The notes below the pieces were generated by a model, which saw only the letters and a program-made list of their open reading frames with translations, had not been told where the DNA came from and made no database searches. Position numbers and translations under genes: made by a program. DNA of 64,000 nucleotides from a candidate division WOR-3 bacterium (GTDB lineage: Bacteria > Hydrothermota > Tepidihabitantia > B3-TA06): the NCBI GenBank assembly GCA_023128825.1, contig JAGMDF010000082.1, positions 8,626 to 72,625 of the forward strand. Direction: 5' to 3'. Each line of letters starts with the position of its first letter. Within the stretch, counting starts at the first letter, position 1. Positions 8,672 to 57,361 of the stretch are shown here, piece after piece.

Positions 8672-8702
8672 ATATTAGATTAAAGGCAACTGGAGGAGTG
8701 TG

Positions 8703-10280
8703 ATGTTTGTCTGGCTTCTACTTTTCAGTGCCCCGCTTGACTGCGGAGCTTTTGATGTAATGGCGTTTCGTTCCATAGAAGAGCGTCACGAGTACATAGA
8801 CTCCCTTGCCGGGGAGGATCTTTATGGGACGATAAGTCTGTTGAGTGAAGTCTTGAACTGCCCCTCGGAGCAGACGCGTATGTTTGCTGCCGAAGCTCTT
8901 GGGTATCTGAGTGACCCTGGAGCCACACCTGCCCTTAGTGCTGCGCTAAAGTCGCCCTCTACCGGGGTTCGCTACGAGGCCGCATGGTCATTGGGATTGT
9001 TGGGTGATACCTCAGCGGTGACGTCTTTGATTGAGGCGCTTTCTGATCGTGCGGCACCGGTGCGAACCAACGCCGCCTGGGCGCTGGGGGAGATCGCAGA
9101 CGCGCGGGCGATCGGCGCGTTACTGAAGGCCCTTGACGATACCGACCATCGCGTCCGCAAGAACGCAACCGAGGCCTTGGGTAAGCTCGAATCCAAGGAG
9201 GCGGTTCCTATTTTCCTTGAGCGCCTTTCTTCCCTTTCAGGTCCAGAACGCAACAGTACACTCGCCGCACTGACGAAGATCGCCGACCCCCGAGCCACCG
9301 AGGTTCTCGCCCAAGCCGCCACTAACCCCTCCGTTCCTGACCGCCACCTCATAGCACAGGCACTCGGTCGAATGGGCGACACCACCGCTGTAGAGACCTT
9401 GATAAAGCTCTTGGATGATCCCCGGTGGGCCGTTCGTGCGAAGGCGGCGTGGTCGTTGGGAATGCTTAAAGATAAACGCGCGGTAAAACCACTCCAGACA
9501 AAAGCTACAGACAAGAAATCCGAGGTAAGACAGGCGGTGTTCGAGGCGCTCGGACGCTTAGGCGAGATCTCGGCTGAGGACGTCCTGATCGAAGGTCTTG
9601 CGGATGAGAGCGACCTTTGCGTGATGGCCTCAGCACACGCCCTCGGGCTTCTGGGAAGCAGGAAGGCGCTAGAGCCTCTGATCGAGTTAATGTCCAACCC
9701 GGAACCACCGGTGAGGGAGCAGGTGGCCTTTGCCCTGGGCGCGATTGGAGATCCAGCCGCGGCTGCCTCACTGCGCGCGCGACTCAACGACGCCTCATGG
9801 GAGGTCCAACAGGCCTCCGTGACCGCTATCGGAAGGCTCAAGGACGCATCATCCCTCGAATCGCTGCGTCCGGTTTTGTTCCACAAGTTCTGGAGCATTC
9901 GCCTTGCAGGGGTACAGGCTCTGGGCGCAATCGGTGCTTCGGAAGGACTGCCCCTGCTCCAACAGCGCTTCAAGGACGAGCACCCGGACGTGCGGCGCTG
10001 GTCACATCTGGTGGCCTTGAAGCTGGGAGCCGATCCGGGGAAAGCCCTTACCGGTCTCAAAGAAGAAAACCCTTCCTCTGAGATGCTGGAGGCCGCAACC
10101 TACATGGCAGGAGAGGAGGAGTCGTTAGGACCATGGCAAGGAGAGCTGACAGAGGAACGCTTAAAGCTTCTTGAACTGGTTCATACCGATGAAGCCCGAG
10201 CATTACTTGAGTCGCTCTCCATCCCAGCGGACAACCCGGAGCTCGGCGAGCTGCGCTTGATTATCCTAAGGAGCTGGTAG
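8703..10280 (+). CDS. HEAT-repeat (PBS-lyase-type) protein
   Basis: Many tandem repeats of the type 'VRxxAAWALGxIGDxRAIxxLxxAL'; GTG at 8700 or ATG at 8703. Confidence 0.75.
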   Translation: MFVWLLLFSAPLDCGAFDVMAFRSIEERHEYIDSLAGEDLYGTISLLSEVLNCPSEQTRMFAAEALGYLSDPGATPALSAALKSPSTGVRYEAAWSLGLLGDTSAVTSLIEALSDRAAPVRTNAAWALGEIADARAIGALLKALDDTDHRVRKNATEALGKLESKEAVPIFLERLSSLSGPERNSTLAALTKIADPRATEVLAQAATNPSVPDRHLIAQALGRMGDTTAVETLIKLLDDPRWAVRAKAAWSLGMLKDKRAVKPLQTKATDKKSEVRQAVFEALGRLGEISAEDVLIEGLADESDLCVMASAHALGLLGSRKALEPLIELMSNPEPPVREQVAFALGAIGDPAAAASLRARLNDASWEVQQASVTAIGRLKDASSLESLRPVLFHKFWSIRLAGVQALGAIGASEGLPLLQQRFKDEHPDVRRWSHLVALKLGADPGKALTGLKEENPSSEMLEAATYMAGEEESLGPWQGELTEERLKLLELVHTDEARALLESLSIPADNPELGELRLIILRSW

Positions 10281-10478
10281 AAGGACACCAGGATAAGAGC
10301 CGCAGGGTTAACCGTCAATGCCGAAAGTAGGGGGGACAGCGATGATGACTCTCGCAGGTCGCCATCCTTATGGTGCAGCTCCCTTACGGTCGCTACCCTT
10401 CGGACGAACCGCCGATTAGCTTTTTTAAGGAAGACTCTGGATCAGCTAGGAACGCCAATCCACTCTTAAGTGTAAAAT

Positions 10479-10566
10479 GGGGTCCCCGCGAGAATGCGAA
10501 GCAGGCTTGCGGGGTAAAAAAACGGGGTCCCCGCAAGGAGGCGAAGCATCCTTGTGGGGTAAAAAA
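10479..10566 (+). repeat. tandem pair of family-2 structured repeats (GGGGTCCCCGC - hairpin with CGAAGCA loop - GYGGGGTAAAAAA)
   Basis: Units at 10479..10522 and 10524..10566 are about 80% identical; inner stems differ but stay complementary (AAGGA/TCCTT in unit 2); abuts the 3' end of tRNA-Gln. Confidence 0.7.
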
Positions 10567-10637
10567 CTGGGGGACAGGGACTCGAACCCCGATTAACTGA
10601 TCCAGAGTCAGCCGTCCTGCCATTAGACGATCCCCCA
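10567..10637 (-). tRNA. tRNA-Gln (anticodon CTG)
   Basis: rc reads TGGGGGA...anticodon stem GCTGA/TCAGT with loop CTCTGGA...T-arm CGGGG-TTCGAGT-CCCTG...TCCCCCA-G. Confidence 0.85.
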
Positions 10638-10650
10638 ATAGTCAAGATTG

Positions 10651-10678
10651 ATTATAAGGGCCAGGCTAATAATGTCAA
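10651..10678 (-). promoter_or_regulatory. promoter of tRNA-Gln (TTGACA-16-TATAAT on the minus strand)
   Basis: rc -35 at 10673-10678 and -10 at 10651-10656; -10 ends 13 nt upstream of the tRNA 5' end. Confidence 0.6.
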
Positions 10679-10684
10679 GCAGGC

Positions 10685-11956
10685 GTGGCTTTTCTTGATC
10701 TATACAATTCCCAGCGGTTGACTTCCGATCATCACACGATAGAATTCCGTGTGAAGCAAGGTCTAAGGCTTGGAATCTATCTTCATGATCGCTACCGCGG
10801 CGGCGGAAACTTTACTGTTTCCAACTCCGAATCGTTGAACTTCATCAAAAGGTTAAAACTCGCCGAGCAAATCTCCTTGGCCGTCTCGGTCACCCCCATT
10901 CAAGATATAGATCGTGGCAACTATCGAGTCGTTGCAGAAGAACTCGGTATAAACCTGCTGCCTTTGCCTGGCTGGCGTAGCCTTGCAGAGAGCTTAACTT
11001 CAATACCCTTTTCCTTGAGTCGAATTCTGAAGACTGCCCGTAACCTGCTGGCAAAAAGCGACATCCTTTGGTTACGTCTGCCTTCCGGGGTTGCTTTTTT
11101 CTTCTGGTGGCTTGCCAAAAAGCAAAACAAGCCGGTAATCATGCACGTATCGGGCAACGTATTAATCGTAGCCCGGTCACAGAAGTATAAAGGCCTGCGT
11201 CGTCTCACGGCTCGATTGGCTTCCTTTACGCTACACCTGTTGACTCGGTGGATGAGTCGTTATGGAATAACTTTGGTAAGCGGAGGAGAGCTGGAGAAGC
11301 TTTTCTCGACCCCATTACACCCTGTATACCAGCTTGACGATATATTACTTTCTGAAAAGAAGCTACTACCCCCCAAGAGAACCAAGGGAGAGGCAAAGGA
11401 TCTACTCTTCGTCGGGCGATTTGACCACGGCAAGGGCATAGAATTGCTGATTCAAGCTATCGAGGATTTGCGAGTTGATTTCCCAGGGATCAGGTTAAGG
11501 ATGGCGGGTGACGGTCCGCTACTTGAGCCTATGCAAAGATTCGTTGCGGAGCGCAACCTTGAAAAGAACGTAAGGATTCTAGGGTTCGTCCCCGCAACCG
11601 GGCCGCTCGAGCGGCTTTACAAGGAGGCGGATATATTTGTATTACCCTCCGACAAAGGTGAGGGTTTCCCAAGGGTTATTCTTGAGGCATGGGGGTCAGG
11701 ATTGCCTGTTCTGGCAACTCGCTTGGGCGGAATCCCTTACAAGATACACCACGACAAAAACGGCCTGCTTGTCACACCGGGCTCCCGCAAGGAATTATTC
11801 AACGCCCTGCACAGGCTTATTCAGGACGGCAACCTGCGCTATCGTTTGGCTAAAGGTGGATACGAGACGATACGTTCCTTGACCTTTGAACATCAGGCTC
11901 GGCGCATCAGAGAGCTGTTGCATCGGTATTACCCCCACCTTGGGGTCCATCCCTGA
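10685..11956 (+). CDS. glycosyltransferase family 4 (GT-B, group 1)
   Basis: 'EGFPRVILEAWGSGLPVLATRLGGIPYKIHHDKNGLLV' is the GT1/GT4 EX7E-type motif; GTG start, true start uncertain. Confidence 0.7.
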   Translation: MAFLDLYNSQRLTSDHHTIEFRVKQGLRLGIYLHDRYRGGGNFTVSNSESLNFIKRLKLAEQISLAVSVTPIQDIDRGNYRVVAEELGINLLPLPGWRSLAESLTSIPFSLSRILKTARNLLAKSDILWLRLPSGVAFFFWWLAKKQNKPVIMHVSGNVLIVARSQKYKGLRRLTARLASFTLHLLTRWMSRYGITLVSGGELEKLFSTPLHPVYQLDDILLSEKKLLPPKRTKGEAKDLLFVGRFDHGKGIELLIQAIEDLRVDFPGIRLRMAGDGPLLEPMQRFVAERNLEKNVRILGFVPATGPLERLYKEADIFVLPSDKGEGFPRVILEAWGSGLPVLATRLGGIPYKIHHDKNGLLVTPGSRKELFNALHRLIQDGNLRYRLAKGGYETIRSLTFEHQARRIRELLHRYYPHLGVHP

Positions 11957-12014
11957 TCTGAACCTTGTGATTGCTGTCCCATTGATGAGGGGAATCGCAG
12001 CAGGCCCTCATGTA

Positions 12015-12042
12015 TTGACAGTTGCACGGCAATCAATAGACT
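12015..12042 (+). promoter_or_regulatory. promoter TTGACA-16-TAGACT, putting the TSS at about the ATG of the 12048 gene (leaderless)
   Basis: -35 at 12015-12020, -10 at 12037-12042, ATG at 12048. Confidence 0.5.
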
Positions 12043-12047
12043 AGCGG

Positions 12048-12722
12048 ATGAGGAAAATCCCGTCATATCTTAAAGAAACCGACGCCTGGAGCACGGTTCT
12101 CTTTGCCGATCCCCTGGGCATCCCTCTGGCAAGGCTGCTTTCGCATACATCCATCCATCCCAATGTGGTCACGATAGCAAGCCTGGTGCCTGCCTTGGCT
12201 TGTACCTATTTCTTCTGGCGCGGCGATTCCCTCTCGCTTCTATGGGGAGCACTTTTGTTCCAGCTCGCGTGGATTCTCGATTGTACCGACGGCAAGCTTG
12301 CCAAGATGACGGGCAAACAGACGGAGTTTGGAACAAAGCTTGATCCTAAAGTCGACTTCGTGCGCAAACTTCTTACACTGGCAGCCCTGACGTGGGGTAT
12401 ATACCGTCAATTCGGAATCATATGGCTTTTTGTCACCCTGGGTGGCGTTATGTTCCACTACGGTATCCACTTTGTTATTCATCACACTCCGCCACGCATC
12501 AGACAGAAGGAGATACCTCAGGCTCCGGCTGAGGTGAGACTGATCCGCCGGGTAGGACAGCTCTACACAGCCTACGACGAGCAGTTCTTTATCCTTTTCC
12601 TGGGTCCGGCATTGGCCTGGCTTACGCCCCATCTGCCCACCTACGTGATATGGGGTGCAAGCCTCCTTTATGCAATAACCATCCTGATTATCAAGATTCA
12701 GATGAAGCAGAGGGGAAGATGA
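12048..12722 (+). CDS. CDP-alcohol phosphatidyltransferase family membrane protein
   Basis: 'DCTDGKLAKMTGKQTEFGTKLDPKVD' fits D(x)2DG(x)2A[RK](x)8G(x)3D(x)3D; multiple TM helices; 224 aa (the size of DIPPS-like enzymes). Confidence 0.75.
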   Translation: MRKIPSYLKETDAWSTVLFADPLGIPLARLLSHTSIHPNVVTIASLVPALACTYFFWRGDSLSLLWGALLFQLAWILDCTDGKLAKMTGKQTEFGTKLDPKVDFVRKLLTLAALTWGIYRQFGIIWLFVTLGGVMFHYGIHFVIHHTPPRIRQKEIPQAPAEVRLIRRVGQLYTAYDEQFFILFLGPALAWLTPHLPTYVIWGASLLYAITILIIKIQMKQRGR

Positions 12723-13444
12723 AGGCCATCATCCTGGCCGCAGGCGAAGGTCGCAGGCTTCATCCCCTTACCATCGACCGTCCCAAGGCAATACTCGAGG
12801 TTGGTGGAAGGATGTTGATCGAAAGAGCGCTGTCTGCATTGCGGGGCGCGGGGATTGAAAGATCAGAGGTGATCATCCTGTCCGGACACAAGGTCGAGAA
12901 GTTGAAAGAGGCAGCGCCGGATTGCCGGTTCATTCACAACGAAATCTATGATACAACCAACAACATCTACTCCCTGTGGCTGGCCAGGGGTGAGCTTGTC
13001 GGTCAAGAGTTTTTCCTGCTCAACAGCGACGTCCTTTTTGCTTCGCAGATGGTCAAGGACATACTCCAGGATGCCAGAAGTAGCCTGATGATGGTGGATG
13101 ACGTAAATCCTCTGGTTAAGGAAGAGATGAGGGTGATGGTGAACGGGGAGCAAAGAATCACCGCTATCGCTAAGATCCTTGATCGGGAGCAAAGCGCGGG
13201 CGAATACATCGGACTTGCAAGATTCGGAAAAGACTTCTCTAAAGCGTTCTTTGATAAGATGGACGAGATGATTAAAGCAGGTGAAACCGGTGTGTGGTAC
13301 GAGAACGCCATCGCCGAGATCCTTGGTGAATACCCGATTTATTCCCTCAGTACACGGGGACTGCCCTGGATAGAGGTAGACACCCACGAGGATCTGGCAA
13401 AGGCTCAGGTTATTGCAAAAAAAATTGACAACCTGGAGGCCTAG
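12719..13444 (+). CDS. sugar/alcohol-phosphate nucleotidyltransferase (LicC / IPCT-like cytidylyltransferase)
   Basis: 'MKAIILAAGEGRRLHPLTIDRPKAILEVGG' NTP_transferase N-terminus; ATG 12719 overlaps the upstream stop (ATGA). Confidence 0.7.
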   Translation: MKAIILAAGEGRRLHPLTIDRPKAILEVGGRMLIERALSALRGAGIERSEVIILSGHKVEKLKEAAPDCRFIHNEIYDTTNNIYSLWLARGELVGQEFFLLNSDVLFASQMVKDILQDARSSLMMVDDVNPLVKEEMRVMVNGEQRITAIAKILDREQSAGEYIGLARFGKDFSKAFFDKMDEMIKAGETGVWYENAIAEILGEYPIYSLSTRGLPWIEVDTHEDLAKAQVIAKKIDNLEA

Positions 13445-14482
13445 ATGCCCATATTCGGAAGCAGCGTATCACTGCCCATACTGGTGAGGATCGAGGGTAA
13501 CCTGCTGGATAGGGTGAACGAACTCCTTCGCGAGTCCAACCTGCTCTTCACCAAGCCTTTGATAGTTACCATGAAAGAAATTCGATCTATGGCGGATGAG
13601 GTGTCGGCTGGATTCAAAGAACCGCACATCCACGAGATCACCGACAACTCCTACCCTCAGGTGGAGGAGATAGAGGAGGTCATTGATGAGGTCAGACCTG
13701 ACGTGCTCTTAGGTGTAGGAGGCGGCCGGGTGATAGACGTAGCCAAGTTCGCCGGCTCGCGGCGGATTCTTCCTGTGGTCAGCATCCCTACCTCGCTCTC
13801 CAACGATGGCATCTCATCGCCGGTAGCGGTGATTCGTTTCCGCAAAGGCACCCGCAGCGTGGGGGTAAACATGCCTACCGCGGTGCTCGTGGACCTGGGG
13901 GCGATTACCTCCGCGCCCCTCAAAAATCTCAAGGCAGGGGTGGGGGATCTTGTGTCCAACATCTCCGCAACCAACGACTGGCTGATCGCTTATCGCAAGA
14001 CCCACGAACACTACGATACGGTGGCCGCGCTCCTGGCTCGCAAATCAGCGTTCGAGATGCTTGATGCCAGGCGGATCAATCTTACAGACACCTCGTTTTT
14101 AAAGATCCTGGCCGAGGGGCTTATGCTCTCCGGCATCGCCATGGGTATTGCTGGAACCAGCAGGCCCTGCAGTGGTTCGGAGCATCTTTTGAGCCATGCC
14201 TATGACGAGCTTTATCCGGATAAAGTAACGTTGCACGGCGAGCAGGTGGCGATGTTTGCGGTATTTACATCCTATCTTCAGGACGAGCCCTCCGCCTCGG
14301 CCCAAGCCGAGTTCCTTAAGCGAAACGAGTTGATTGCCACCCCCAAGGATATCGGATTAGGGTTCGAGGATTTCAAGAGGATTGTCAAACACGCCCCTTC
14401 CACCCGCCCAGGACGCTACACTATCCTGGAAGAGGTTGACGAGGTGGATAGCGAGAAGGCCTTTCGCAAGGCTTACGGATAA
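13445..14482 (+). CDS. Fe-ADH/DHQS-superfamily dehydrogenase, best match sn-glycerol-1-phosphate dehydrogenase (EgsA/AraM-like)
   Basis: 'LLGVGGGRVIDVAKFAG' glycine-rich NAD(P) loop and 'CSGSEHLLSHA' metal-binding His motif; 345 aa; start abuts the upstream stop. Confidence 0.5.
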   Translation: MPIFGSSVSLPILVRIEGNLLDRVNELLRESNLLFTKPLIVTMKEIRSMADEVSAGFKEPHIHEITDNSYPQVEEIEEVIDEVRPDVLLGVGGGRVIDVAKFAGSRRILPVVSIPTSLSNDGISSPVAVIRFRKGTRSVGVNMPTAVLVDLGAITSAPLKNLKAGVGDLVSNISATNDWLIAYRKTHEHYDTVAALLARKSAFEMLDARRINLTDTSFLKILAEGLMLSGIAMGIAGTSRPCSGSEHLLSHAYDELYPDKVTLHGEQVAMFAVFTSYLQDEPSASAQAEFLKRNELIATPKDIGLGFEDFKRIVKHAPSTRPGRYTILEEVDEVDSEKAFRKAYG

Positions 14483-14725: not shown

Positions 14726-15814
14726 ATGAGTAAGATAACGCTTTCCGTCATCAAGGCCGACGTCGGCGGTTACGTGGGACACTCGGCCTCGCATCCTGAG
14801 GTGATGGCCAAGGCAGAGGTGATGCTTGACGCAGCCAAGAGGGAGGGAAAGCTCATAGACTTCGAGGTCCTCGCCTGCGGTGACGATCTTGAATTGATCA
14901 TGACCCACACCCACGGCACCGACGCCGAGGTTATTCACAAGCTGGCCTGGGATACCTTTGTTGAAGGCACAGAGGTTGCCAAGAAATTAAAGCTGTACGG
15001 AGCCGGTCAGGATCTTTTAGCCGATGCCTTCTCGGGCAACGTGAAGGGCATGGGTCCGGGTTGTGCGGAGATGGAGTTCGAAGAGCGCAAGAGCGAACCG
15101 GTAATAATCTTCATGGCCGACAAGACCTCGCCCGGCGCGTGGAACTACCCGCTGTACAAGATATTCGCCGATCCGTTCAACACCGCCGGCCTGGTTATCG
15201 ATTCTTCAATGCATGAGGGCTTCACCTTCTTGATCAACGACCCGATGAAGAACAAACGGGTCAAGCTCAATACACCTGAAGAGATGTATGATCTGCTGGC
15301 GCTGATCGGCAGCCACGAGCAGTACGTGGTGGATACGGTGTACCGCAAGGACGGCCTCGTCGCGGCCAAGGCGTCCACACAGAAGCTGGCGCTGATTGCG
15401 GGCAAGTACGTGGGCAAGGACGACCCGGTGATGATCGTTCGCGCCCAGGCGGGCCTGCCAGCTGTGGGCGAGGTGCTGGAGCCGTTCAGCTTCCCCCACG
15501 TGGTCTCAGGCTGGATGCGCGGCTCTCACAACGGGCCCCTGATGCCGGTAAGCTTCAAACAGGCCACTCCGACCCGGTTTGACGGCCCTCCGCGCGTAAT
15601 CGCTGCCGGATTCCAGCTGGCAGACGGAAAACTGATCGGTCCGAGGGACATGTTCGACGATCCGTCGTATGACAGATCGCGAGCCATAGCTAATGAGGTA
15701 GCCGACTACCTGCGCCGCCACGGACCGTTCGAGCCGGGCAGGCTGCCCCACGGTGATATGGAGTACACCACCCTCCCGCAGGTGCTTGAGAAACTTGAAG
15801 ACAGGTTCTCCTAG
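14726..15814 (+). CDS. fbp: bifunctional fructose-1,6-bisphosphate aldolase/phosphatase (archaeal-type class V FBPase)
   Basis: Near-collinear conservation with characterised FBPA/P: 'SVIKADVGG...HS', 'GDDLELIMTHTHG', 'AGQDLLADAFSGNVKGMGPGCAEMEFEER', 'IFMADKTSPGAWNYPLYKIFADPFNTAGLVID', 'LIAGKYVGKDDPVMIVR', 'GWMRGSHNGPLMPVS', 'TRFDGPPR', 'MEYTTLPQVLEKLEDRF'. Confidence 0.9.
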   Translation: MSKITLSVIKADVGGYVGHSASHPEVMAKAEVMLDAAKREGKLIDFEVLACGDDLELIMTHTHGTDAEVIHKLAWDTFVEGTEVAKKLKLYGAGQDLLADAFSGNVKGMGPGCAEMEFEERKSEPVIIFMADKTSPGAWNYPLYKIFADPFNTAGLVIDSSMHEGFTFLINDPMKNKRVKLNTPEEMYDLLALIGSHEQYVVDTVYRKDGLVAAKASTQKLALIAGKYVGKDDPVMIVRAQAGLPAVGEVLEPFSFPHVVSGWMRGSHNGPLMPVSFKQATPTRFDGPPRVIAAGFQLADGKLIGPRDMFDDPSYDRSRAIANEVADYLRRHGPFEPGRLPHGDMEYTTLPQVLEKLEDRFS

Positions 15815-16674
15815 TGTTCTTGCGCAAGAATCTGCGCCCCGCCCGCGAAGCGCGCAAGAAGCTCGACCTTAAAGACGGATTGTGGCTTAAATGCGAAAGC
15901 TGCGGCGAGATCCTCTACCGCCGCGAGCTCGATCAATCATGCTGGATCTGCCCCAAGTGCGGTTTCCACTTCCGTGTAGGTCACAAAACCTACATCAAGC
16001 TGCTTCTGGATGAGGGCAAACTGGAAGAGATAGACAGGGGACTCGTGTCTGTTGATCCTTTGCGTTTTCCCAAGTACAAGGAGAAGTACAAAACCTCACG
16101 CAAGAAGACCGGAATGGAAGAGGGGATAGTCTCGGGCAGAGCCGAGATCAATGGTATGCCGGTTATTTTTGCGGCTACGGACTTCGCGTTCATGGGCGGA
16201 AGCATGGGTTCTGTGGTGGGCGAGAAGGTGGCTCGTGCGGCTCGATTGGCTCTGGCCGAACGCAAACCGTTCGTGATGCTTACCGCCTCAGGCGGAGGGG
16301 CACGAATGCAGGAAGGAATCTTCTCCCTCATGCAGATGGCCAAGACCTCAGCCGAGGTTGGCCTGCTCAAACAGGCTCAGATTCCATACATCAACATCCT
16401 GACTCACCCGACGATGGCCGGGGTAATGGCCTCCTTCGCCTCCCTGGGCGACGTGATCATCGCCGAGCCTGGAGCGCTTCTGGGATTTACCGGCCCACGG
16501 GTCATAGAGCAGACCATAGGCGAGAAGCTTCCGCCCGGATTCCAGCGCTCCGAGTTCCTCCTGGAGCACGGCTTCGTGGATATCGTGTGCTCCCGCCGCG
16601 AGCTCAGGGAGACCGTGGCCAGGATACTGAGCATCCTTACCGAACCTCATAAGGAGCCGTCATCTCAGACATAG
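15814..16674 (+). CDS. accD: acetyl-CoA carboxylase carboxyltransferase beta subunit
   Basis: N-terminal zinc ribbon 'CESCGEILYRRELDQSCWICPKCGFHFR' plus carboxyltransferase domain 'GGSMGSVVGEKV...ASGGARMQEG'. Confidence 0.9.
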   Translation: MFLRKNLRPAREARKKLDLKDGLWLKCESCGEILYRRELDQSCWICPKCGFHFRVGHKTYIKLLLDEGKLEEIDRGLVSVDPLRFPKYKEKYKTSRKKTGMEEGIVSGRAEINGMPVIFAATDFAFMGGSMGSVVGEKVARAARLALAERKPFVMLTASGGGARMQEGIFSLMQMAKTSAEVGLLKQAQIPYINILTHPTMAGVMASFASLGDVIIAEPGALLGFTGPRVIEQTIGEKLPPGFQRSEFLLEHGFVDIVCSRRELRETVARILSILTEPHKEPSSQT

Positions 16675-17789: not shown

Positions 17790-19235
17790 ATGAATCCTCT
17801 TCAAAAAAGGTTGACCGCTCAAGCAATCAAGGCGGCAGTAAAAAACCCCGGCCTCGCCAGTACACTTCTAAAACCACTCAGGGCAAGAATCAAAAAGGGA
17901 ATTATGGATGCCCAACCCACGAACATACCCTACCTCACTGAAATAAAAACACAGTTTCTTGTGAATCTACTTGAGCAGTCTTTCAAAAACATCCAAAAGG
18001 GGTACTTTTCCACTGAGTATGCTGAAAGGGTACGCGAGACCTTTGTAATGAATGGGTTCCTCGACGAAAGGCGACCCAAAGTCCAGAAAAAGTACAAGGA
18101 TAAGTACGGAATAGAACCCCCCAGCTTCTGTTTGATCTCTCCCACCAAGCACTGCAACCTTAGATGCATAGGATGTTACGCGGCCTCGGAAGCAACTAGC
18201 GCAGCCACACTGGACTATGAGGTGTTCACCAAGCTGCTCCATGAGATGCGCGATCTGATCGGGTCGAACTTCATCGTGATCTCCGGCGGCGAGCCCTTTA
18301 TGTACAACTCCCAGGGCAAGACCCTGCTTGACGCCGTGGAAGAATTCTCCGACATGGTTTTCCTTGTTTACACCAACGGGACACTACTCACCGACGAAAC
18401 GGTGGAAAGGATGGCCGGACTGGGAAACATAACCCCGGCGATATCCGTTGAAGGCTACGAGAAAGAAACCGACGCAAGACGGGGAAAAGGCGTCTATGCG
18501 AAGATTATGGATTCAATGGAGAGGCTTAGACACCGCGGGGTTCCCTTCGGGACATCCGTTACCGCAACCAAGAACAACGTTGAAATCCTGCTGACCGACG
18601 AATTCTACGAGCACTACTTCGAGGAGCTGGGTGCGGTGTATATGTGGATGTTCCACCTGATGCCTATCGGAAGGGCCAGGGACACCATGGATCTGATGAT
18701 TTCTCCTGAGCAGCGCGTTGCGCTTTACAACCAGTGGGAAAGGATGCTCTTCGATAAGAAATACTTTGTCGGAGACTTCTGGAATAGTGGTGCGGCATCG
18801 GATGGCTGCATTGCCTATGGCAGAGAGAGGGGATACTTCTACGTCGACTGGAACGGGAACATCATGCCTTGCGGGTTCGTGCCATACTACAAAGACAATC
18901 TCTACGATCTTTACAGGGATGGTAAGTCAATCGCAGACGGGCTGATGTCGGATCTGTTTGTAAAGGGAAGGAACTGGCAGCACGAATACGGATACGGTCA
19001 ACTGAAGTTCTGTAATAATATACTTACCCCTTGCTCTATCCGCGACCACCACAAATACTTCAGGGAGAATATCCTGGACAACAGCGCGAAGCCTGAGGAT
19101 GAAAATGCAAAGGCAGCGCTCGAAGATCCTGAGTACTACGAGAGACTGGTGGAGTTCGATGAAGAACTTGAGAAGCTCACCCAACCCATCTGGCAGGAGC
19201 GCTACCTTAAAGACCTGAAACGAACCTCACGATGA
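17790..19235 (+). CDS. radical SAM / SPASM-domain protein with about 120-aa N-terminal extension
   Basis: 'CNLRCIGCYA' CxxxCxxC at residues about 122-129; C-terminal Cys-rich 'GCIAYG...NIMPCGFVP...KFCNNILTPCSIRD' SPASM-like auxiliary cluster region; AAGGAG SD. Confidence 0.8.
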   Translation: MNPLQKRLTAQAIKAAVKNPGLASTLLKPLRARIKKGIMDAQPTNIPYLTEIKTQFLVNLLEQSFKNIQKGYFSTEYAERVRETFVMNGFLDERRPKVQKKYKDKYGIEPPSFCLISPTKHCNLRCIGCYAASEATSAATLDYEVFTKLLHEMRDLIGSNFIVISGGEPFMYNSQGKTLLDAVEEFSDMVFLVYTNGTLLTDETVERMAGLGNITPAISVEGYEKETDARRGKGVYAKIMDSMERLRHRGVPFGTSVTATKNNVEILLTDEFYEHYFEELGAVYMWMFHLMPIGRARDTMDLMISPEQRVALYNQWERMLFDKKYFVGDFWNSGAASDGCIAYGRERGYFYVDWNGNIMPCGFVPYYKDNLYDLYRDGKSIADGLMSDLFVKGRNWQHEYGYGQLKFCNNILTPCSIRDHHKYFRENILDNSAKPEDENAKAALEDPEYYERLVEFDEELEKLTQPIWQERYLKDLKRTSR

Positions 19236-19271
19236 TGCCGCACCTCTATACAGTACAACCCGGGGGGCAGC

Positions 19272-19299
19272 TTGACAGAACTGCCTTTTCTACTATAAT
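19272..19299 (+). promoter_or_regulatory. consensus promoter (TTGACA-16-TATAAT) of the TetR gene, -35 flanked by inverted repeat GGCAG...CTGCC
   Basis: -35 at 19272-19277, -10 at 19294-19299, ATG at 19311. Confidence 0.6.
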
Positions 19300-19310
19300 G
19301 GCAGGTTATT

Positions 19311-29982: not shown

Positions 29983-31671
29983 ATGAAAAAAGTGGTGTTG
30001 ATTATGGGAGGGCTGATTTTATGCGGCTCACTTTGGGCTACCGCTCCGATGAGGGAAGGTCCATACCCCAGGGAAGCAATTCCCTCTCCTCTGATGCCGG
30101 ACACCATGAATCCATTGAAACTGCGCTTCAACTATCTTTACGAGTTTGCACAGATTGCCCAGTTCTGCGCCGAATGGCAGCTGGACGAGGCGGATTCTGC
30201 AGATCACGGCGGGATGATAGAGGCGGAAACAGGCCCTCTGCGCCCGGTAATCCAGACCGACAACACCCTGGAGGCGATCTGGGTGTGGGCGCGCTACGGG
30301 GAATTTACCGGAGATACGGCCAGGTTCCGGGAGAATATCGACAAAGCATGGTTTTACTGCAACAACTTCCCCGCCTGGCAGGAGGAGGGTGAGCCGGGTG
30401 CCCATTATTACCGCAACCACAACTGCGCGTGGGGCGTGGCGGCGGAGCAGCGCTACCGCGCGGTGTATGCTGACGACGCCTACAGGTGGTATGCCGATTC
30501 CTGTGCGGAGTTCATGAAGTTCCATCCCATGAACATCTGGAACATGGTCAACCGCTTCGTCACCGGCTGGTGCGCGGGTTGGCTGTACTCCTACGGGGTG
30601 GAGCGAGAAGACGGCGAGGCCCGGGACAGTGCGTGCTCGTTCGCCGACAGCCTGCTCAGCTTCATCGAACCCCAGATCGAGGCAAAGCTCGGGGACGAAA
30701 GGTGGGCGATGTCTGCAGGAACCATGGTGTGGGGCATCTGTAACTCCGCCTTTCAGCGAGATAGTCTCAGAGGCAAGGAATGGATCGAGGCAAACGGCCC
30801 CTACCTTGATACCTTCCAGACCTGGTATGCCAACGATTATTTCTCCTGGGATAACGCCTGGAACGTGGGGTTTGCCAACGGCCACGGCGCGATGTACGAT
30901 ATATCGCATGATCCTACTTATGCCCGCCACCACCGCTGGCTCACCCACAAGCTTCTTTCCTACGATACCGACTCGGACGGCGGGATAATGGCCACCACCC
31001 AGGACGTGGATACCACGGACATGACCTGGGTGTCATTATATCTCTGCATGATGGGTCTTGACCGGTTGATCGGAGAAGTTTATGACTACGACGCGGGCGC
31101 GCTGGAGATTGTGGGACTCCACGACGGTGATCAGATAGAGGAGGGAACCCGGATGGACCTGGTGGCGGTGGTTTCGAATTACGGTCGAGAGCCGCTCAGC
31201 AACGTAAAGGTGACACTTTCTGGCGACGCATCGGGTTCGGCTGAATCAGACCTTGCCTTCCTTGGGATGGACACGATAACGCTCGTATTTGATTGGCTTG
31301 TACCTGATTCGGCTGTGCTTACCCTGACGACATCACATCCACAGGACGAAGATCACGCTAACGACACATTGATCGTGCGGCTGAACAAAGCGGCAGGCAT
31401 AAATGAGGGGTCGAAAAAACCGTCGAGATTACATCTGGAGGTCGCCTCCCTGACAAAATCGATCTGCCGCATTACTTATGCCCTTCCTGAGGGGAATCAC
31501 GGTGAGCTTTCGCTCTACAACATCCTCGGCGCCAAAGTCAAAAGAGAAAACCTGAGGACTTCTGATGGAGTAGTGGATTGGGATCTTTCCGGGCTACCCG
31601 GCGGGGTTTACTTCGTCCGGCTCAACTCAGGAGATCATCACATCACAAGGCGGCTTACCTTGTTGCGTTAA
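29983..31671 (+). CDS. secreted protein with T9SS C-terminal sorting domain (N-terminal Trp-rich, possibly glycosidase-like alpha/alpha-toroid)
   Basis: Signal peptide; C-terminus 'ELSLYNILGAKVKRENLRTSDGVVDWDLSGLPGGVYFVRLNSGDHHITRRLTLLR' is a canonical Por_Secre_tail. Confidence 0.75.
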   Translation: MKKVVLIMGGLILCGSLWATAPMREGPYPREAIPSPLMPDTMNPLKLRFNYLYEFAQIAQFCAEWQLDEADSADHGGMIEAETGPLRPVIQTDNTLEAIWVWARYGEFTGDTARFRENIDKAWFYCNNFPAWQEEGEPGAHYYRNHNCAWGVAAEQRYRAVYADDAYRWYADSCAEFMKFHPMNIWNMVNRFVTGWCAGWLYSYGVEREDGEARDSACSFADSLLSFIEPQIEAKLGDERWAMSAGTMVWGICNSAFQRDSLRGKEWIEANGPYLDTFQTWYANDYFSWDNAWNVGFANGHGAMYDISHDPTYARHHRWLTHKLLSYDTDSDGGIMATTQDVDTTDMTWVSLYLCMMGLDRLIGEVYDYDAGALEIVGLHDGDQIEEGTRMDLVAVVSNYGREPLSNVKVTLSGDASGSAESDLAFLGMDTITLVFDWLVPDSAVLTLTTSHPQDEDHANDTLIVRLNKAAGINEGSKKPSRLHLEVASLTKSICRITYALPEGNHGELSLYNILGAKVKRENLRTSDGVVDWDLSGLPGGVYFVRLNSGDHHITRRLTLLR

Positions 31672-32851
31672 ACTCCTTCCAAGCGGGAAGTATAACCTTA
31701 TAGTAGTACTCCTCGGCAAGACGCTTGCGGTCGAAACGTTCGCCTACTTTTCTTGCTCGCTTTGACATCTTGCGTAATCGAGCGGGGTCCTTAAGTAATG
31801 CTGCGGTTTGTTCTGCCAAGAGCTGGGGGGATGAATCAAGGATACCTGCTTTGTTGTCTGTAATCAACCGCTTTGTCTCTATGTAGAAGTCAGGGTCAAG
31901 CAATCCGATAACCGGTAGACCAGCCGCCAGGTACTCATATTCTTTCGCGCCTATCGCTCCCCGGTAAGCGGGGCAGTTACCCAAAAGAGCGTTTAACCCT
32001 AAGCGAGCGCGACCCAAGAGTCCTGGGAGTTTCTCAGGAGGGTGAGGGAACTCAATGAACACATTCTTCCATAAACCGAGACGGTCTATTCCCTCAAGGA
32101 ATTCCCTGCCAATCGGATTATCCAGGTTTGAAATAAAAAGGGCGCGCAATGATGGGTAAAGGCCTGCAAGAAACCGTAGGTATTTCAATAGACCTGCCGG
32201 GTTTCTGATTGCTATGAAGGTGCCAGAGTAAACGATATCGAATTCCTTCTTTACAGAAAGTCCTCCCGCAGAGATGCTCGTTTCGCTGCCATTACGCACC
32301 ACGAATAGTCGATGAGATGGGTAGTCGAGAAACTCCACCAGCTCTTTCTTGAGCCAATCGGTAACCGTGGTTATCCGGGAGGCCCTTACCCCCAGACGTT
32401 TCAATGAATTGATCTGAAAGGTCTTAAATGCCGTATGTATCAGCGTTGTTTTAGCCCGGATACCTCCCTGAGGCAAATCCCTCACATCAAGTATAAAAGG
32501 AACCCCAAGTCGCTTAGCCAACAAGTAACCCTCCCACATAGGCCATGCCGGAGGAATACTTGCCACTACAGCATCAGGATTGAGAGTTTTAACCTTCCGT
32601 AACAATCTGGAGAATGTCCAAGGAAGGTGTAGGAAATCGAGACGCAACCTGGCGAGGGGGAAGACAAGCCTGTTATAGCCCGTTGGTTTGTTAACATGTT
32701 CGGGTGCCACCACAGTAACTTGAGTCAACGCGCTCCAGTATTTGGCAAATGAATGAAGCCGCGAAGCGGCTGCCCCTCTAAAGGGAGGAAAAAGTGGTGC
32801 AAGTATCAAAATGTGAGGTCTTGGGGTATCCATATCCTGATAATGCTTCAT
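31655..32851 (-). CDS. glycosyltransferase family 4-like (GT-B)
   Basis: 'ILILAPLFPP' N-terminal GT-B start, C-terminal 'EYLAAGLPVIGL' donor-binding motif. Confidence 0.6.
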   Translation of the reverse strand: MKHYQDMDTPRPHILILAPLFPPFRGAAASRLHSFAKYWSALTQVTVVAPEHVNKPTGYNRLVFPLARLRLDFLHLPWTFSRLLRKVKTLNPDAVVASIPPAWPMWEGYLLAKRLGVPFILDVRDLPQGGIRAKTTLIHTAFKTFQINSLKRLGVRASRITTVTDWLKKELVEFLDYPSHRLFVVRNGSETSISAGGLSVKKEFDIVYSGTFIAIRNPAGLLKYLRFLAGLYPSLRALFISNLDNPIGREFLEGIDRLGLWKNVFIEFPHPPEKLPGLLGRARLGLNALLGNCPAYRGAIGAKEYEYLAAGLPVIGLLDPDFYIETKRLITDNKAGILDSSPQLLAEQTAALLKDPARLRKMSKRARKVGERFDRKRLAEEYYYKVILPAWKEFNATR

Positions 32852-32873
32852 CTTTTTAACGCTTCAAATCGCA

Positions 32874-34346
32874 TCAATCTTGTTCTCTTCGCAGAAATAT
32901 CTTTCTGAGAAACTTACGTTCAGAGGGAAGGAGAAATCCTGAAAATGTCAAGCCGGCAAAATAAAGGGCACTGCCCCCACCCAGCTTGATCAGGGAACCC
33001 AGCAGCGGGGTAAGTGGATGCCAGAAGAAACTTCCGGCAGTAATACTCAAACTTACCAAGGCGATGAGCAGGATGCGCTTGATCTCGTAGGGTATCTTCA
33101 TAAGTCGGCGGCTAAAAAAGATCATTGCCAAAAGCATCGCAGTGTAAGAAACGAGTGAGGCAAGCGCAGCCGCCCAAAGTCCGATCTTAGGTAATAAGAT
33201 TACATTAATTAACACGACAACTGCCGCTCCAATTAACGAGGTCCACGTGAAGAATCCTGTTCTTCTCTTTATGTAGCAAGGGGTAGATATAATGCTGTAG
33301 GCGCCGTAAAGACAAATCCCTAGAAGGAGAACGGGAATAAGGGGGTAACCCTCCCAGTATTCCGGTTTTTTGGCGATAATCTGCACAAGCTCTTTTGCGC
33401 ACCCCCCGATCACAATTAGCGCCCAGCCGCCGATGAACAGCATGTAAGTAAGTACACGAGAGGTTATCCTGGGAAGATCATCTCTTTCCTTAATAGAAAA
33501 AGCGTAGGGGATCCAGGCCAGGTTAACCGTCGCAACCAAAAGAAAAGAAACCAGGTTAGCAATATTCACAGCGAACCCATACACCCCCACCGCAGCTTCG
33601 CCAAGAACAGGCTTTATGAGCCAGCGATCAAGCATGTTTCTGATCCAGAAAAAGGCCATATTGGGAACCAAAGGCAGTGCATACCGGAACATGCTGCCCA
33701 AACTCTTAAAAGAAAACTTGATTCCTCGAGTATAAACATATACGATTGCTGTCACTGGTAAGAAGAACACCAGCGCCATAATCACATCTACCTGGTATAG
33801 CCCCACAAGGTCTCTTTTCAAAACCACGAGGAAGATAACCATCAATCCCACTTTGACCAGAGACTTGGCTATTGTAAAGATAGTGTAGACGCCCGGACGT
33901 CTCTCGCAGCGCAGGAAGGAAAGGAAAATAAAGCTGGGTGGTGTCAGCGTAGTAAAGATTGCAAACAACCGAAGTATAGCTACTGCATCCGGGGTGTCCA
34001 AAGCCATGAGTCGTGCCAGTTGTGGGGCAAAGAGGAAAGTCAACCCACCTATTAAGAAGGAGGTTATAACACTGAAGGTGAACCCGGTGGAGATGACGGT
34101 TCGGCGTTCTTCAGGGGTCTTGACTTTGTAGAAATCGGCTATAACTGCCTGTTCGATTGAAAGCAGAATAATAATTTTAAGAATTTCGTAAAGGGGTATA
34201 GTCAAGTTGCGGATCCCGTAACTCGCGATGGGAAGATAGGCGGAGTAGAGGGGAAGCAACACAAATCGAATAAGACGGTCGCTGGCGTTGCCGATCCCGT
34301 ATATCAACGTATCTTTAGTAAGGCTCTTGAAATCCTTTAAGGCCAT
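32874..34346 (-). CDS. polysaccharide biosynthesis flippase (Wzx / MOP superfamily)
   Basis: 490 aa, about 12-14 TM helices, 'polysacc_synt'-type topology. Confidence 0.7.
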   Translation of the reverse strand: MALKDFKSLTKDTLIYGIGNASDRLIRFVLLPLYSAYLPIASYGIRNLTIPLYEILKIIILLSIEQAVIADFYKVKTPEERRTVISTGFTFSVITSFLIGGLTFLFAPQLARLMALDTPDAVAILRLFAIFTTLTPPSFIFLSFLRCERRPGVYTIFTIAKSLVKVGLMVIFLVVLKRDLVGLYQVDVIMALVFFLPVTAIVYVYTRGIKFSFKSLGSMFRYALPLVPNMAFFWIRNMLDRWLIKPVLGEAAVGVYGFAVNIANLVSFLLVATVNLAWIPYAFSIKERDDLPRITSRVLTYMLFIGGWALIVIGGCAKELVQIIAKKPEYWEGYPLIPVLLLGICLYGAYSIISTPCYIKRRTGFFTWTSLIGAAVVVLINVILLPKIGLWAAALASLVSYTAMLLAMIFFSRRLMKIPYEIKRILLIALVSLSITAGSFFWHPLTPLLGSLIKLGGGSALYFAGLTFSGFLLPSERKFLRKIFLRREQD

Positions 34347-34352
34347 AAGGTC

Positions 34353-35456
34353 TTATAAGCCCAGGGCCTTAAGTATCTCCTGCTGCATCCGCTCGACCGC
34401 CTTGCCGTTGCCAAACGCCTCTAGATCGGGCGGTTGATCCGGAAGCGTTAGTTGCGCGATTCCCTCCAGTATAGCTTTGGGATCTGTACCTACAATATGG
34501 TTCCATCCTTCCTCAAGCGTTTCCGGCCACTCGGTCTCCTCCCGAAGCGTAAGACAGGGACGGGAAAGGAAGTATGCTTCGCGCTGCACGCCGCCAGAAT
34601 CCGTAAGGATCAAGGAAGCATGTTCCTCCAGCACAAGCATGTCGAGATAAGATACCGGAGGGATTACGTCGATGTTATCCAGATCGTGAGAGGAAAGCTT
34701 ATCCAGTGTCTTGGCGGTTCGCGGATGACACGGAAAAATGATACGGGGGCGATCTTCGCGGATAAATGCTTTGATGATCATTCCAAGCTTGCTTTCGTCG
34801 TCAACGTTGGAAGGTCGATGCATGGTTAAAAGCCAGAAGGGCTGATCATTCAACGCCAAACGATCGAGCACATCCGAGGTTTCGTGAGCCCGCGGCAGGA
34901 AGTAATGAAGGGTATCCAAAAGAATGTCCCCGGTGTGAATCACTCCATCTTTGCGTCCTTCCTTTTTGAGGTTGTTAACCGAGGTCGGTGTAGGGCAAAA
35001 CAAAATTTCCGAAACCGCATCGGTTACTATACGATTTATTTCTTCCGGCATCCTGCGGTTGCCGCTGCGTAGCCCTGCCTCAACGTGAGCAACCGGGATG
35101 TGGAGCTTTACCGCGGCTAAGGCTCCGGCGAGCGTTGAGTTGGTGTCGCCGTAAACTATGACCAGATCAGGCTTCTCATCCATAAGCACCTTCTCGATCC
35201 CAATCATCGCATCGCCGGTCTGACGGGCGTGGGTTCCTGAACCTACACCAAGATCGAAGTCAGGACGGTAGTTGAGTTCGTCGAAAAAGACCTGTGCCAT
35301 GTCAGGGCTGTAGTGCTGACCGGTATGAAGATGAAGGTGGGTCAATCCCGGAGCTTCTCTGGCTAAAGTCCTAGAAAGCATCGCCGCCTTGATGAACTGG
35401 GGACGGGCACCGACTACTGAGAGGAGCTTTCTCTGCGCTCCAGGAACATCAAACAT
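34353..35456 (-). CDS. wecB: UDP-N-acetylglucosamine 2-epimerase (non-hydrolysing)
   Basis: 'VHVEAGLRSGNRRMPEEINRIVTDAVSEILFCPT' and 'HRPSN' epimerase_2 motifs. Confidence 0.85.
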   Translation of the reverse strand: MFDVPGAQRKLLSVVGARPQFIKAAMLSRTLAREAPGLTHLHLHTGQHYSPDMAQVFFDELNYRPDFDLGVGSGTHARQTGDAMIGIEKVLMDEKPDLVIVYGDTNSTLAGALAAVKLHIPVAHVEAGLRSGNRRMPEEINRIVTDAVSEILFCPTPTSVNNLKKEGRKDGVIHTGDILLDTLHYFLPRAHETSDVLDRLALNDQPFWLLTMHRPSNVDDESKLGMIIKAFIREDRPRIIFPCHPRTAKTLDKLSSHDLDNIDVIPPVSYLDMLVLEEHASLILTDSGGVQREAYFLSRPCLTLREETEWPETLEEGWNHIVGTDPKAILEGIAQLTLPDQPPDLEAFGNGKAVERMQQEILKALGL

Positions 35457-57349: not shown

Positions 57350-57361
57350 TTCTCCTCTGGC

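Follow-up and report, generated by a model that had tools for sequence, protein, structure and literature searches.

A putative CDP-glycerol pathway fed by sn-glycerol-1-phosphate in a candidate division WOR-3 bacterium

A 64,000-nucleotide (nt) stretch of a contig from a candidate division WOR-3 bacterium (JAGMDF010000082.1, assembly GCA_023128825.1, positions 8,626-72,625; hereafter the window, whose own positions are used as coordinates) contains three tightly coupled genes encoding a small cytidine diphosphate (CDP)-alcohol phosphotransferase, a nucleotidyltransferase of the LicC/IPCT type and a dehydrogenase resembling sn-glycerol-1-phosphate dehydrogenase (G1PDH). On balance, we lean toward the view that this trio (12048-14482) is a three-step pathway placing sn-1 ('archaeal') glycerophosphate on a cell-envelope molecule. 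Profile searches establish the enzyme families; the substrates, the stereochemistry and the acceptor we infer. The underlying chemistry, from sn-glycerol-1-phosphate (G1P) through CDP-glycerol to a phosphodiester, was already proposed in a first-pass annotation made from the sequence alone, and is strongly backed by the conserved adjacency of the dehydrogenase and nucleotidyltransferase genes, by a natural fusion of the two and by their TagF-like partners in other bacteria.

The first step would be the NAD(P)H-dependent reduction of dihydroxyacetone phosphate (DHAP) to G1P by the dehydrogenase, as its homology suggests. G1P and CTP would then be joined into CDP-glycerol by the nucleotidyltransferase, a role predicted from its family, the gene coupling and the natural fusion, and equivalent to that of TagD for glycerol-3-phosphate (G3P), though the enzyme is of the LicC/IPCT family. 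In the last step, predicted from family, fold and context, the six-helix membrane transferase would move glycerophosphate from CDP-glycerol to an acceptor hydroxyl with release of CMP. The acceptor would be membrane-bound at the cytoplasmic face, a lipid-linked glycan or glycolipid with later outward flipping being the likeliest candidate, and may be built by the neighboring GT4 glycosyltransferase, possibly also with a GT4/flippase block at 31.6-35.5 kb.

The coupled genes and their enzyme families

An open reading frame (ORF) check of the window recovers the four plus-strand genes of the first-pass annotation, namely the trio and the GT4 gene upstream, at the same positions, and public gene calls on the 170-kb parent metagenome scaffold give the identical four. 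Profile searches with Pfam and NCBIfam likewise uphold the families assigned there (GT4, CDP-OH_P_transf, NTP_transferase and Fe-ADH_2/G1PDH). The four genes had been described as tightly coupled, with the ATG at 12719 overlapping and the ATG at 13445 abutting the preceding stop, and both junctions are confirmed on reading the sequence. The nucleotidyltransferase ATG overlaps the TGA stop of the phosphotransferase gene (12720-12722) as ATGA and is preceded by GAGGGG, and the dehydrogenase ATG immediately follows the TAG stop of the nucleotidyltransferase gene (13442-13444), with GGAGG 7 nt upstream, so that both starts have Shine-Dalgarno-like sequences. Tight coupling does not extend to the GT4: a 91-nt gap containing a promoter-like TTGACA-16-TAGACT, which ends 5 nt before ATG 12048, separates it from the phosphotransferase gene, which leaves the last three genes as the coupled unit. 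Its end is placed at 14482, since the 243-nt spacer that follows provides the next gene, for a fructose-bisphosphate (FBP) aldolase/phosphatase, with a separate promoter-like site and a strong ribosome-binding sequence (AAGGAGG). The site before ATG 12048 matches the consensus at 10 of 12 positions, a pattern match with inferred function, and the scanned region holds 8 promoter-like sites versus 3.1 +/- 1.9 in shuffles. This arrangement suggests that the trio forms its own, possibly leaderless, transcription unit.

The dehydrogenase (Pfam Fe-ADH_2) scores 249.7 bits over residues 7-333 against the NCBIfam G1PDH model (NF002022, equivalog cut-off 413 bits), versus 66.9 bits for glycerol dehydrogenase (GldA) and 28.3 for AroB. 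Its top match among solved structures is the Clostridium acetobutylicum protein 3ce9 (159 bits), followed by Methanocaldococcus jannaschii G1PDH (144), the G1PDH 5fb3 (136), probably from Pyrobaculum, a protein later identified as Bacillus subtilis AraM (90), and GldA (at most 53). The ranking by fold is the same: Foldseek searches with an AlphaFold2 (AF2) model (pLDDT 92.7) place 3ce9 first, then M. jannaschii G1PDH (TMq 0.81-0.83 at 29-30% identity), 5fb3 and AraM, all ahead of every GldA structure (19-21% identity). The placement comes from relative hidden Markov model, phmmer and Foldseek rankings, and it bears out the earlier assignment of this gene as G1PDH-like rather than GldA or 3-dehydroquinate synthase. 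The GGGR, SNDGIxSP, GDxxSN (D168), SGSEH (H247) and HGEQ (H264) motifs line up with those of M. jannaschii G1PDH and do not vary among 11 diverse bacterial homologs. They comprise a glycine-rich NAD(P)H motif (G92-G93-G94-R) and three candidate metal positions, D168 (GDLVSN), H247 (SGSEH) and H264 (LHGEQ), which are presumably the Asp/His/His metal ligands of the superfamily. At this motif level, the enzyme has its active-site loops in common with M. jannaschii G1PDH, which was solved with DHAP. Its best named relatives are from candidate division WOR-3 (71-72% identity).

This enzyme has its fold, its cofactor motif and the three presumed metal-ligand positions in common with archaeal EgsA and AraM, and it scores higher against archaeal G1PDH structures than against AraM. 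EgsA and AraM supply prenyl-ether lipid synthesis (GGGPS, PcrB), whereas the partner of the window enzyme is a cytidylyltransferase. One alternative is nevertheless that the G1P made by the dehydrogenase goes into archaeal-type ether lipids, GGGPS and DGGGPS being encoded elsewhere in the genome and the neighboring genes being unrelated. Surveys find GGGPS/DGGGPS homologs in sampled phyla of the Fibrobacteres-Chlorobi-Bacteroidetes (FCB) group and count bacterial G1PDH among the lipid genes (PMC6431249), and stand-alone G1PDH genes exist in organisms bearing the type IX secretion system (T9SS; loci L016 and L018, below). We consider this highly improbable, as the dehydrogenase is translationally coupled to the nucleotidyltransferase and in one lineage fused to it, and as no GGGPS or UbiA was seen in any related locus or in the Pfam-annotated parts of the window, which were covered by the parent-scaffold annotation and extra scans. 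The remark in the first-pass annotation that the window lacks a GGGPS/UbiA homolog agrees with this result, but its allusion to archaeal-type lipids of FCB bacteria finds no support, and NCBI taxonomy now gives WOR-3 as the phylum Caldifarciminota, outside the FCB group.

The nucleotidyltransferase gives only NTP_transf_3, NTP_transferase and IspD-type matches in Pfam, which rules out a TagD-type G3P cytidylyltransferase; no TagD-type (HxGH cytidylyltransferase-like) match is found in Pfam or among the best 25 of 34 NCBIfam matches. The top NCBIfam match is the IPCT half of the IPCT/DIPPS model (NF041135, 73.7 bits over residues 1-231), and the best matches in the PDB are LicC (1jyk, 61.5 bits) and PntC (6pd1, 59.4 bits). 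Clustering with choline-phosphate enzymes, which the first-pass annotation had named among the findings that would overturn its reading, is not cleanly dismissed by these matches, given the closeness of LicC and PntC, but the higher-ranking of the profile matches is IPCT, and no choline kinase, choline transporter, LicD or phosphoenolpyruvate-mutase domain occurs in the Pfam-annotated parts of the window. In a loose pairwise alignment, the Trp in the EWF segment of LicC pairs with a non-aromatic residue.

The phosphotransferase matches PF01066 (CDP-OH_P_transf) at 52.8 bits, and falls below the cut-off of each named NCBIfam subfamily: archaetidylinositol-phosphate synthase (AIPS; NF040950, 55.3 versus 180 bits), phosphatidylinositol-phosphate synthase (PIPS; NF045883, 47.5 versus 170), DIPPS (31.3 versus 580) and PgsA (TIGR00560, 28.7 versus 109). 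A word-index search finds only 28 relatives, and together with these low scores this indicates that the enzyme represents a distinct small clade. Members of the family carry a D1xxD2GxxAR...GxxxD3xxxD4 signature on TM2-TM3 and a P(D/N)xx(T/S) motif (PMC4634129), and in the window enzyme the signature is intact (D78xxD81G82xxA85[K86]x8G95x3D99x3D103), with the second motif present as P38-N-V-V-T42. The Lys at the signature Arg position (K86) was considered as a mark of inactivation and rejected, as orthologs alternate between Lys and Arg (most have Arg). Searches with an AF2 model (pLDDT 91.9) give AF2299 of Archaeoglobus fulgidus (TMq 0.64), DIPPS (0.61) and PIPS as the best folds, and AF2299 is the closest solved structure by both fold and sequence (36.8 bits), at only 19-20% identity. 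AF2299 was crystallized with CDP-glycerol, the glycerol of which is held in a small hydrophilic donor pocket (PMC4634129); unlike the window enzyme, it carries an extra N-terminal cytosolic domain. JGI automatic annotation labels the orthologs of the window transferase as phosphatidylglycerophosphate synthase. We know of no established physiological acceptor for AF2299.

Distribution and genomic partners of the pair

A scan of a genome collection with the dehydrogenase profile lists 80 loci, of at least 80, and look-ups of metagenomic contigs supplied further lineages. In 77 of the 80 loci the dehydrogenase gene has the nucleotidyltransferase gene directly beside it, usually with an overlap, a count dominated by 71 loci from Streptomyces (70) and Streptacidiphilus (one) and representing about nine independent lineages. 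Other Actinomycetota, a candidate phyla radiation (CPR) bacterium (Kerfeldbacteria) and a metagenome-assembled genome (MAG) labelled Sarcina make up part of the remainder, and the contig look-ups add pairs from Carboxydothermus and small-genome Actinomycetota. Together with WOR-3 and two low-GC uncultured lineages, these are the lineages in which the pair occurs, and its adjacency holds in every metagenomic relative examined. The two true exceptions are stand-alone G1PDH-like genes (1351-2397 of L016 and ~9470-10519 of L018; 38-41% identity) without a nucleotidyltransferase. Each lies directly downstream of a GH57/glucodextranase-like gene in a T9SS-bearing organism, in L018 with a T9SS sorting domain.

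The complete trio is found in the WOR-3 relatives L008, L011 and L095 at 62-73% identity and in the two low-GC uncultured lineages (L096 and L012) at 38-48%. The three proteins keep matching identity levels (68/71/73% in L095, 66/62/66% in L008, 47/42/48% in L096 and 46/38/44% in L012), which points to inheritance of the trio as a unit. An exhaustive search of 1.84 billion representatives also reveals a natural fusion of 579 amino acids (P0307), whose N-terminal half is 37% identical to the window nucleotidyltransferase and whose C-terminal half is 37% identical to the window dehydrogenase by BLASTP (40% in the phmmer table). The fusion is encoded on contigs of two JGI samples (8001-9740 of L097 and 1124-2863 of L098), and in L097 is followed by genes for a divergent CDP-alcohol transferase, a GT4, a radical SAM protein, a GT2 and a flippase. 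The fusion and the conserved translational coupling are strong evidence that the nucleotidyltransferase and the dehydrogenase catalyze consecutive steps.

The transferase that accompanies the pair differs between lineages. A small CDP-alcohol phosphotransferase is the partner in WOR-3 and in both low-GC uncultured lineages. Two CDP-alcohol phosphotransferases, a GT2 and a TagG/H-type ATP-binding cassette (ABC) exporter accompany it in Streptomyces, where the synteny of the module has been listed without experiments (PMC13118837, 2026). A gene of the TagF-like CDP-glycerol glycerophosphotransferase family is the partner in Carboxydothermus, in small-genome Actinomycetota and in the Sarcina-labelled MAG; the Carboxydothermus pair stands at the end of a LytR/TagO-like/TagF-like/TagA-like cluster whose listed genes include no TagD-type cytidylyltransferase domain. 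The partnership with TagF-like enzymes in clusters without a listed TagD-type domain suggests that the pair produces a CDP-polyol, most simply CDP-glycerol. Since both kinds of partner consume CDP-alcohols and a G1PDH-like enzyme is coupled to the cytidylyltransferase, the simplest product would be CDP-glycerol made from G1P.

The surroundings of the module, for the most part Wzx/Wzy polysaccharide clusters or clusters of the teichoic-acid type, bear on the acceptor. In L096, the trio lies between a Wzx-type flippase gene and genes for a GT2, Wzy, a GT4, a second GT2 and a Bac_transf protein, and in the CPR locus (L013) a GT4 and a flippase are encoded upstream of the module. These Wzx/Wzy polysaccharide contexts, and the teichoic-acid-type contexts of other relatives, favor a lipid-linked envelope glycan or glycolipid as the acceptor, though they do not prove it.

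A second CDP-alcohol phosphotransferase paralog is encoded beside the module in L008 (9041-9811), L009 (9040-9825) and L017 (12476-13261). This paralog has His (DxxDGxxAR..G...D...H) where the family signature has its fourth Asp, the proposed catalytic base, and the WOR-3 relative and the Actinomycetota sequences match one another at 84 bits.

Alternative products, related systems and implications

Several observations weigh against the proposed pathway. The score of the dehydrogenase below the equivalog cut-off means that orthology to archaeal EgsA is not established; the closest solved relatives of the nucleotidyltransferase activate phosphocholine (LicC) and aminoethylphosphonate (PntC); and the pair count leans on Streptomyces, as given above. 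The nearest characterized relatives of the transferase (DIPPS, PIPS and AIPS) take soluble polyol-phosphate acceptors (PMC4634129), and its conserved R164..R168 loop could bind phosphate, by analogy with two conserved arginines of PIPS. In L011 and L012 the trio lies among housekeeping genes, without adjoining glycan genes. In addition, the TagF-like family includes users of CDP-ribitol, so that partnership with its members does not by itself fix the polyol.

The acceptor-related points among these could be accommodated by a compatible-solute pathway, in which CDP-glycerol and a soluble polyol phosphate (glycerol or inositol phosphate) would yield a solute of the diglycerol-phosphate or glycerophosphoinositol type after dephosphorylation, as with IPCT/DIPPS. 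The best sequence and fold matches of the transferase (AF2299, DIPPS and PIPS) take soluble donors and/or polyol-phosphate acceptors, the conserved arginines lie in the loop before its last helices, and the trio stands alone in L012 and L011. Four independent lineages (L008, L013, L096 and L097), however, place the module in polysaccharide-assembly clusters with flippases, Wzy, glycosyltransferases or an initiating transferase, and the Gram-positive pairs lie in teichoic-acid-type clusters or beside an ABC exporter. The DIPPS and AIPS models match far below cut-off, no phosphatase or inositol-phosphate synthase domain is linked, and no MIPS domain is found in the Pfam-annotated parts of the window or in the related loci. 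We therefore regard a solute product, one of the options left by the first-pass annotation, as unlikely.

The self-sufficiency of the trio in L012 and L011 would also suit direct synthesis of a phospholipid head group, in which CDP-sn-1-glycerol and diacylglycerol would form phosphatidylglycerol in one Kennedy-type step like that of CDP-choline:diacylglycerol cholinephosphotransferase. The natural head group of phosphatidylglycerol is sn-1-linked glycerol, so the stereochemistry would fit, and the automatic label of the orthologs points the same way. This route is nevertheless quite improbable: the fold similarity of the transferase to cholinephosphotransferases is weak (E 0.38-0.96, versus 4e-6 for AF2299), the polysaccharide and teichoic-acid contexts would be left unexplained, and the TagF-like enzymes that accompany the pair in other lineages serve polymers and are not lipid synthases.

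The polyol itself could differ, the pair making CDP-2-glycerol, as in the pneumococcal Gtp1-Gtp3 route, or the CDP derivative of another product of ketose-phosphate reduction, by analogy with the TarI/TarJ route to CDP-ribitol. The Gtp1-Gtp3 route to CDP-2-glycerol uses a similar dehydrogenase-nucleotidyltransferase pair and a HAD-type enzyme. Consistent with a different polyol are the use of CDP-ribitol by TagF-like enzymes, the sub-threshold G1PDH score and one locus, L059 (9998-12569), in which the pair occurs in reverse order (dehydrogenase, then nucleotidyltransferase), followed by a NagD-type HAD hydrolase gene and adjoined by a TagF-like gene and a flippase gene. This arrangement appears to resemble gtp1-gtp2-gtp3, and L059 may be a CDP-2-glycerol (gtp1-3-like) variant. 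A homolog search seeded with its dehydrogenase lists no Streptococcus proteins among the best 120. The L059 contig is titled Sarcina sp., and the NCBI name for the identical protein is Cetobacterium sp. The HAD hydrolase gene is found only in L059, being absent from the window and from every other locus compared; no kinase or mutase is linked in the window, and the active-site loops are those of a G1PDH solved with DHAP. For the form without the HAD gene, CDP-1-glycerol is the parsimonious product, and another polyol in the window appears distinctly improbable.

The proposed route through CDP-1-glycerol to an envelope acceptor can be compared with several known systems. As in the TagD/TagF (and TagB) pathway of wall teichoic acid and the TagF-like capsule polymerases, a glycerol phosphate would be converted to CDP-glycerol and then to a lipid-linked envelope polymer. 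In the window module, however, the cytidylyltransferase is of the LicC/IPCT type and not the TagD type, a dedicated dehydrogenase would supply G1P as the precursor instead of G3P, and the transferase is a CDP-alcohol phosphotransferase, not a TagF-like enzyme. In the TarI/TarJ and pneumococcal Gtp1-Gtp3 systems, too, a dehydrogenase and a nucleotidyltransferase are encoded by neighboring genes and together supply a surface polymer with a CDP-polyol. TarJ differs in being a zinc medium-chain dehydrogenase, and the HAD gene that the 2-phosphate route needs in Gtp1-Gtp3 is absent from the window. LicC/LicD and PntC belong to systems in which a cytidylyltransferase of the same family serves the decoration of envelope glycans with a small phospho-alcohol (PMC6697681), and differ in that the window enzyme is coupled to a G1PDH-like dehydrogenase.

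IPCT/DIPPS of hyperthermophiles likewise combines a cytidylyltransferase of the LicC/IPCT family with a small CDP-alcohol phosphotransferase using a soluble CDP-polyol donor, and the first-pass annotation had described the middle two genes as a split pair of this type. The resemblance is real in that the transferase falls with AF2299, DIPPS and PIPS and the top nucleotidyltransferase match is IPCT, but the order of the genes is opposite. They are also separate, coupled to a G1PDH-like gene without a linked inositol-phosphate synthase gene, and their products score far below the family cut-off (74 and 31 versus 580 bits); the genomic context of the module is moreover surface glycan, not solute.

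Bacterial G1PDH homologs form a deep clan, mostly from Firmicutes and Actinobacteria, and have been discussed under the lipid divide (PMC6431249; PMC13400652). The chirality of glycerol phosphate is a textbook divide between Bacteria and Archaea, and in its light these homologs have mostly been taken for potential signs of archaeal-type lipids (PMC6431249; PMC13400652). CDP-1-glycerol has been considered likely absent from bacteria, with sn-1 glycerophosphate in bacterial surface structures ascribed to other donors such as phosphatidylglycerol (PMC8262930, 2021). No biochemical or genetic study of the pair was found in the full-text literature, though most subscription journals fall outside that coverage and prior work is possible. 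The comparative evidence suggests that most bacterial G1PDH homologs have another job, that of feeding a cytidylyltransferase for surface-polymer machinery. We tentatively propose, as a serious possibility that we would not put at an even chance, that many bacterial phyla (WOR-3, CPR, Actinomycetota including most sampled Streptomyces, and Firmicutes) make CDP-sn-1-glycerol through a pair of G1PDH and LicC-type enzymes for envelope polymers with the 'archaeal' glycerophosphate enantiomer. A G1P-fed CDP-glycerol envelope pathway would be an unstudied form of the well-known CDP-polyol systems for surface tailoring, and what makes it interesting is less the single locus than how widely the conserved, unstudied pair occurs. 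In actinomycetes the pair could be a missing LtaS-independent route to lipoteichoic-acid-like polymers, in which enzymes of the CDP-alcohol phosphotransferase family, including the His paralog, would act as glycerophosphate transferases or polymerases.

If this is true, the deep bacterial G1PDH clan would gain a function unrelated to archaeal-type lipids, the view of CDP-1-glycerol as absent from bacteria would be overturned, and the presence of G1PDH in metagenomes would no longer be evidence for mixed membranes. Many envelope polymers made from CDP donors would be opposite in stereochemistry to classical wall teichoic acid, which would affect how antibodies, phages and stereospecific hydrolases such as GlpQ recognize them, and the known roles of CDP-alcohol phosphotransferases would extend beyond the synthesis of phospholipids and solutes. 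The hypothesis can be tested directly in cultured carriers such as Streptomyces and Carboxydothermus.

Neighboring genes and other features of the window

Features of the module and of its candidate partners in the window (aa, amino acids)
Feature	Position	Strand	Basis
GT4 (GT-B) glycosyltransferase	10685..11956, probable start GTG 10751 (401 aa)	+	Pfam, L095 ortholog
Promoter-like site TTGACA-16-TAGACT	12015..12042	+	Consensus pattern match
Integral-membrane CDP-alcohol phosphotransferase, 224 aa, predicted glycerophosphate transferase	12048..12722	+	Pfam, NCBIfam, AF2 fold
Soluble LicC/IPCT/PntC-type nucleotidyltransferase, 241 aa, predicted CTP:glycerol-1-phosphate cytidylyltransferase	12719..13444	+	Pfam, NCBIfam, PDB matches
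G1PDH-like NAD(P)H dehydrogenase, 345 aa, predicted to reduce DHAP to sn-glycerol-1-phosphate	13445..14482	+	NCBIfam, PDB matches, AF2 fold
Candidate partner block: GT4 / Wzx-type flippase / UDP-GlcNAc 2-epimerase-like, then LptF/G	31655..35456	-	Pfam; partnership suggested by L008

The upstream GT4 matches Glycos_transf_1 (130 bits) and Glyco_trans_1_4 (119 bits) in Pfam, and only generic GT4 models, all far below cut-off, in NCBIfam. In L095 an ortholog of 52% identity lies directly upstream of the trio, and as this protein has 401 residues and a promoter-like site lies inside the extension from 10685, GTG 10751 is the probable start of the window gene. No ortholog is present in L011 or L012, and an unlike GT4 occupies the position in L008. 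The GT4 therefore looks like an accessory gene, kept with the module only in the close lineage and transcribed separately, and its conservation pattern and separate promoter-like site weaken the earlier inclusion of it in a single unit.

Promoter-like sites of the form TTGAC[T/A]-16-TAGA[A/C]T occur both at the GT4 start (10718-10751) and at the phosphotransferase start (12015-12048), each ending 5 nt before the probable start codon (GTG 10751 and ATG 12048), and both starts lack a Shine-Dalgarno sequence. The arrangement resembles that of leaderless mRNAs and is seen here twice.

A second glycan block lies on the minus strand and encodes a GT4 (31655-32851), a Wzx-type flippase (32874-34346) and a UDP-GlcNAc 2-epimerase-like protein (34353-35456), with LptF/LptG genes continuing to ~38000. 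In L008, the 66%-identical relative, an ortholog of this second GT4 (49% identity) and genes for a flippase, an epimerase and LptFG directly flank the trio and the second CDP-alcohol transferase, so that the block is possibly the partner of the window trio. Pfam detects T9SS sorting domains as well as LptF/G in the window, which together indicate that the host is a diderm.

Downstream of the module, the window encodes an archaeal-type bifunctional FBP aldolase/phosphatase (14726-16674; 594 bits, above cut-off) whose gene overlaps accD. The same gene pair follows the module in L095 and lies nearby in L094. The enzyme uses DHAP, the presumed substrate of the dehydrogenase, but its gene has its own promoter-like site.

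Upstream, a minus-strand tRNA-Gln(CTG) gene (10566-10638), with a perfect TTGACA-16-TATAAT promoter ahead, separates the GT4 from the preceding genes. Two tandem copies of a 45-nt GC-hairpin (10474-10563) lie downstream of the tRNA gene, and short direct and inverted copies of tRNA segments occur at 10331-10342 and 10433-10448; the tRNA-segment copies (region 10331-10678) may be an old integration scar. Next to this region, a 526-residue protein (8700-10280) consists almost entirely of HEAT/PBS-lyase-type repeats (HEAT_2, 284 bits), and the long antisense ORFs over its gene are probably artefacts of repeat composition.

Farther from the module, a radical SAM enzyme of 481 residues matching SPASM-type maturase models is followed by a TetR regulator (17790-19913). 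On the minus strand (53666-60514), a 1227-residue Baseplate_J protein adjoins a 1050-residue CarboxypepD_reg/Plug (TonB-receptor-like) protein, an unusual pairing in a non-phage context.

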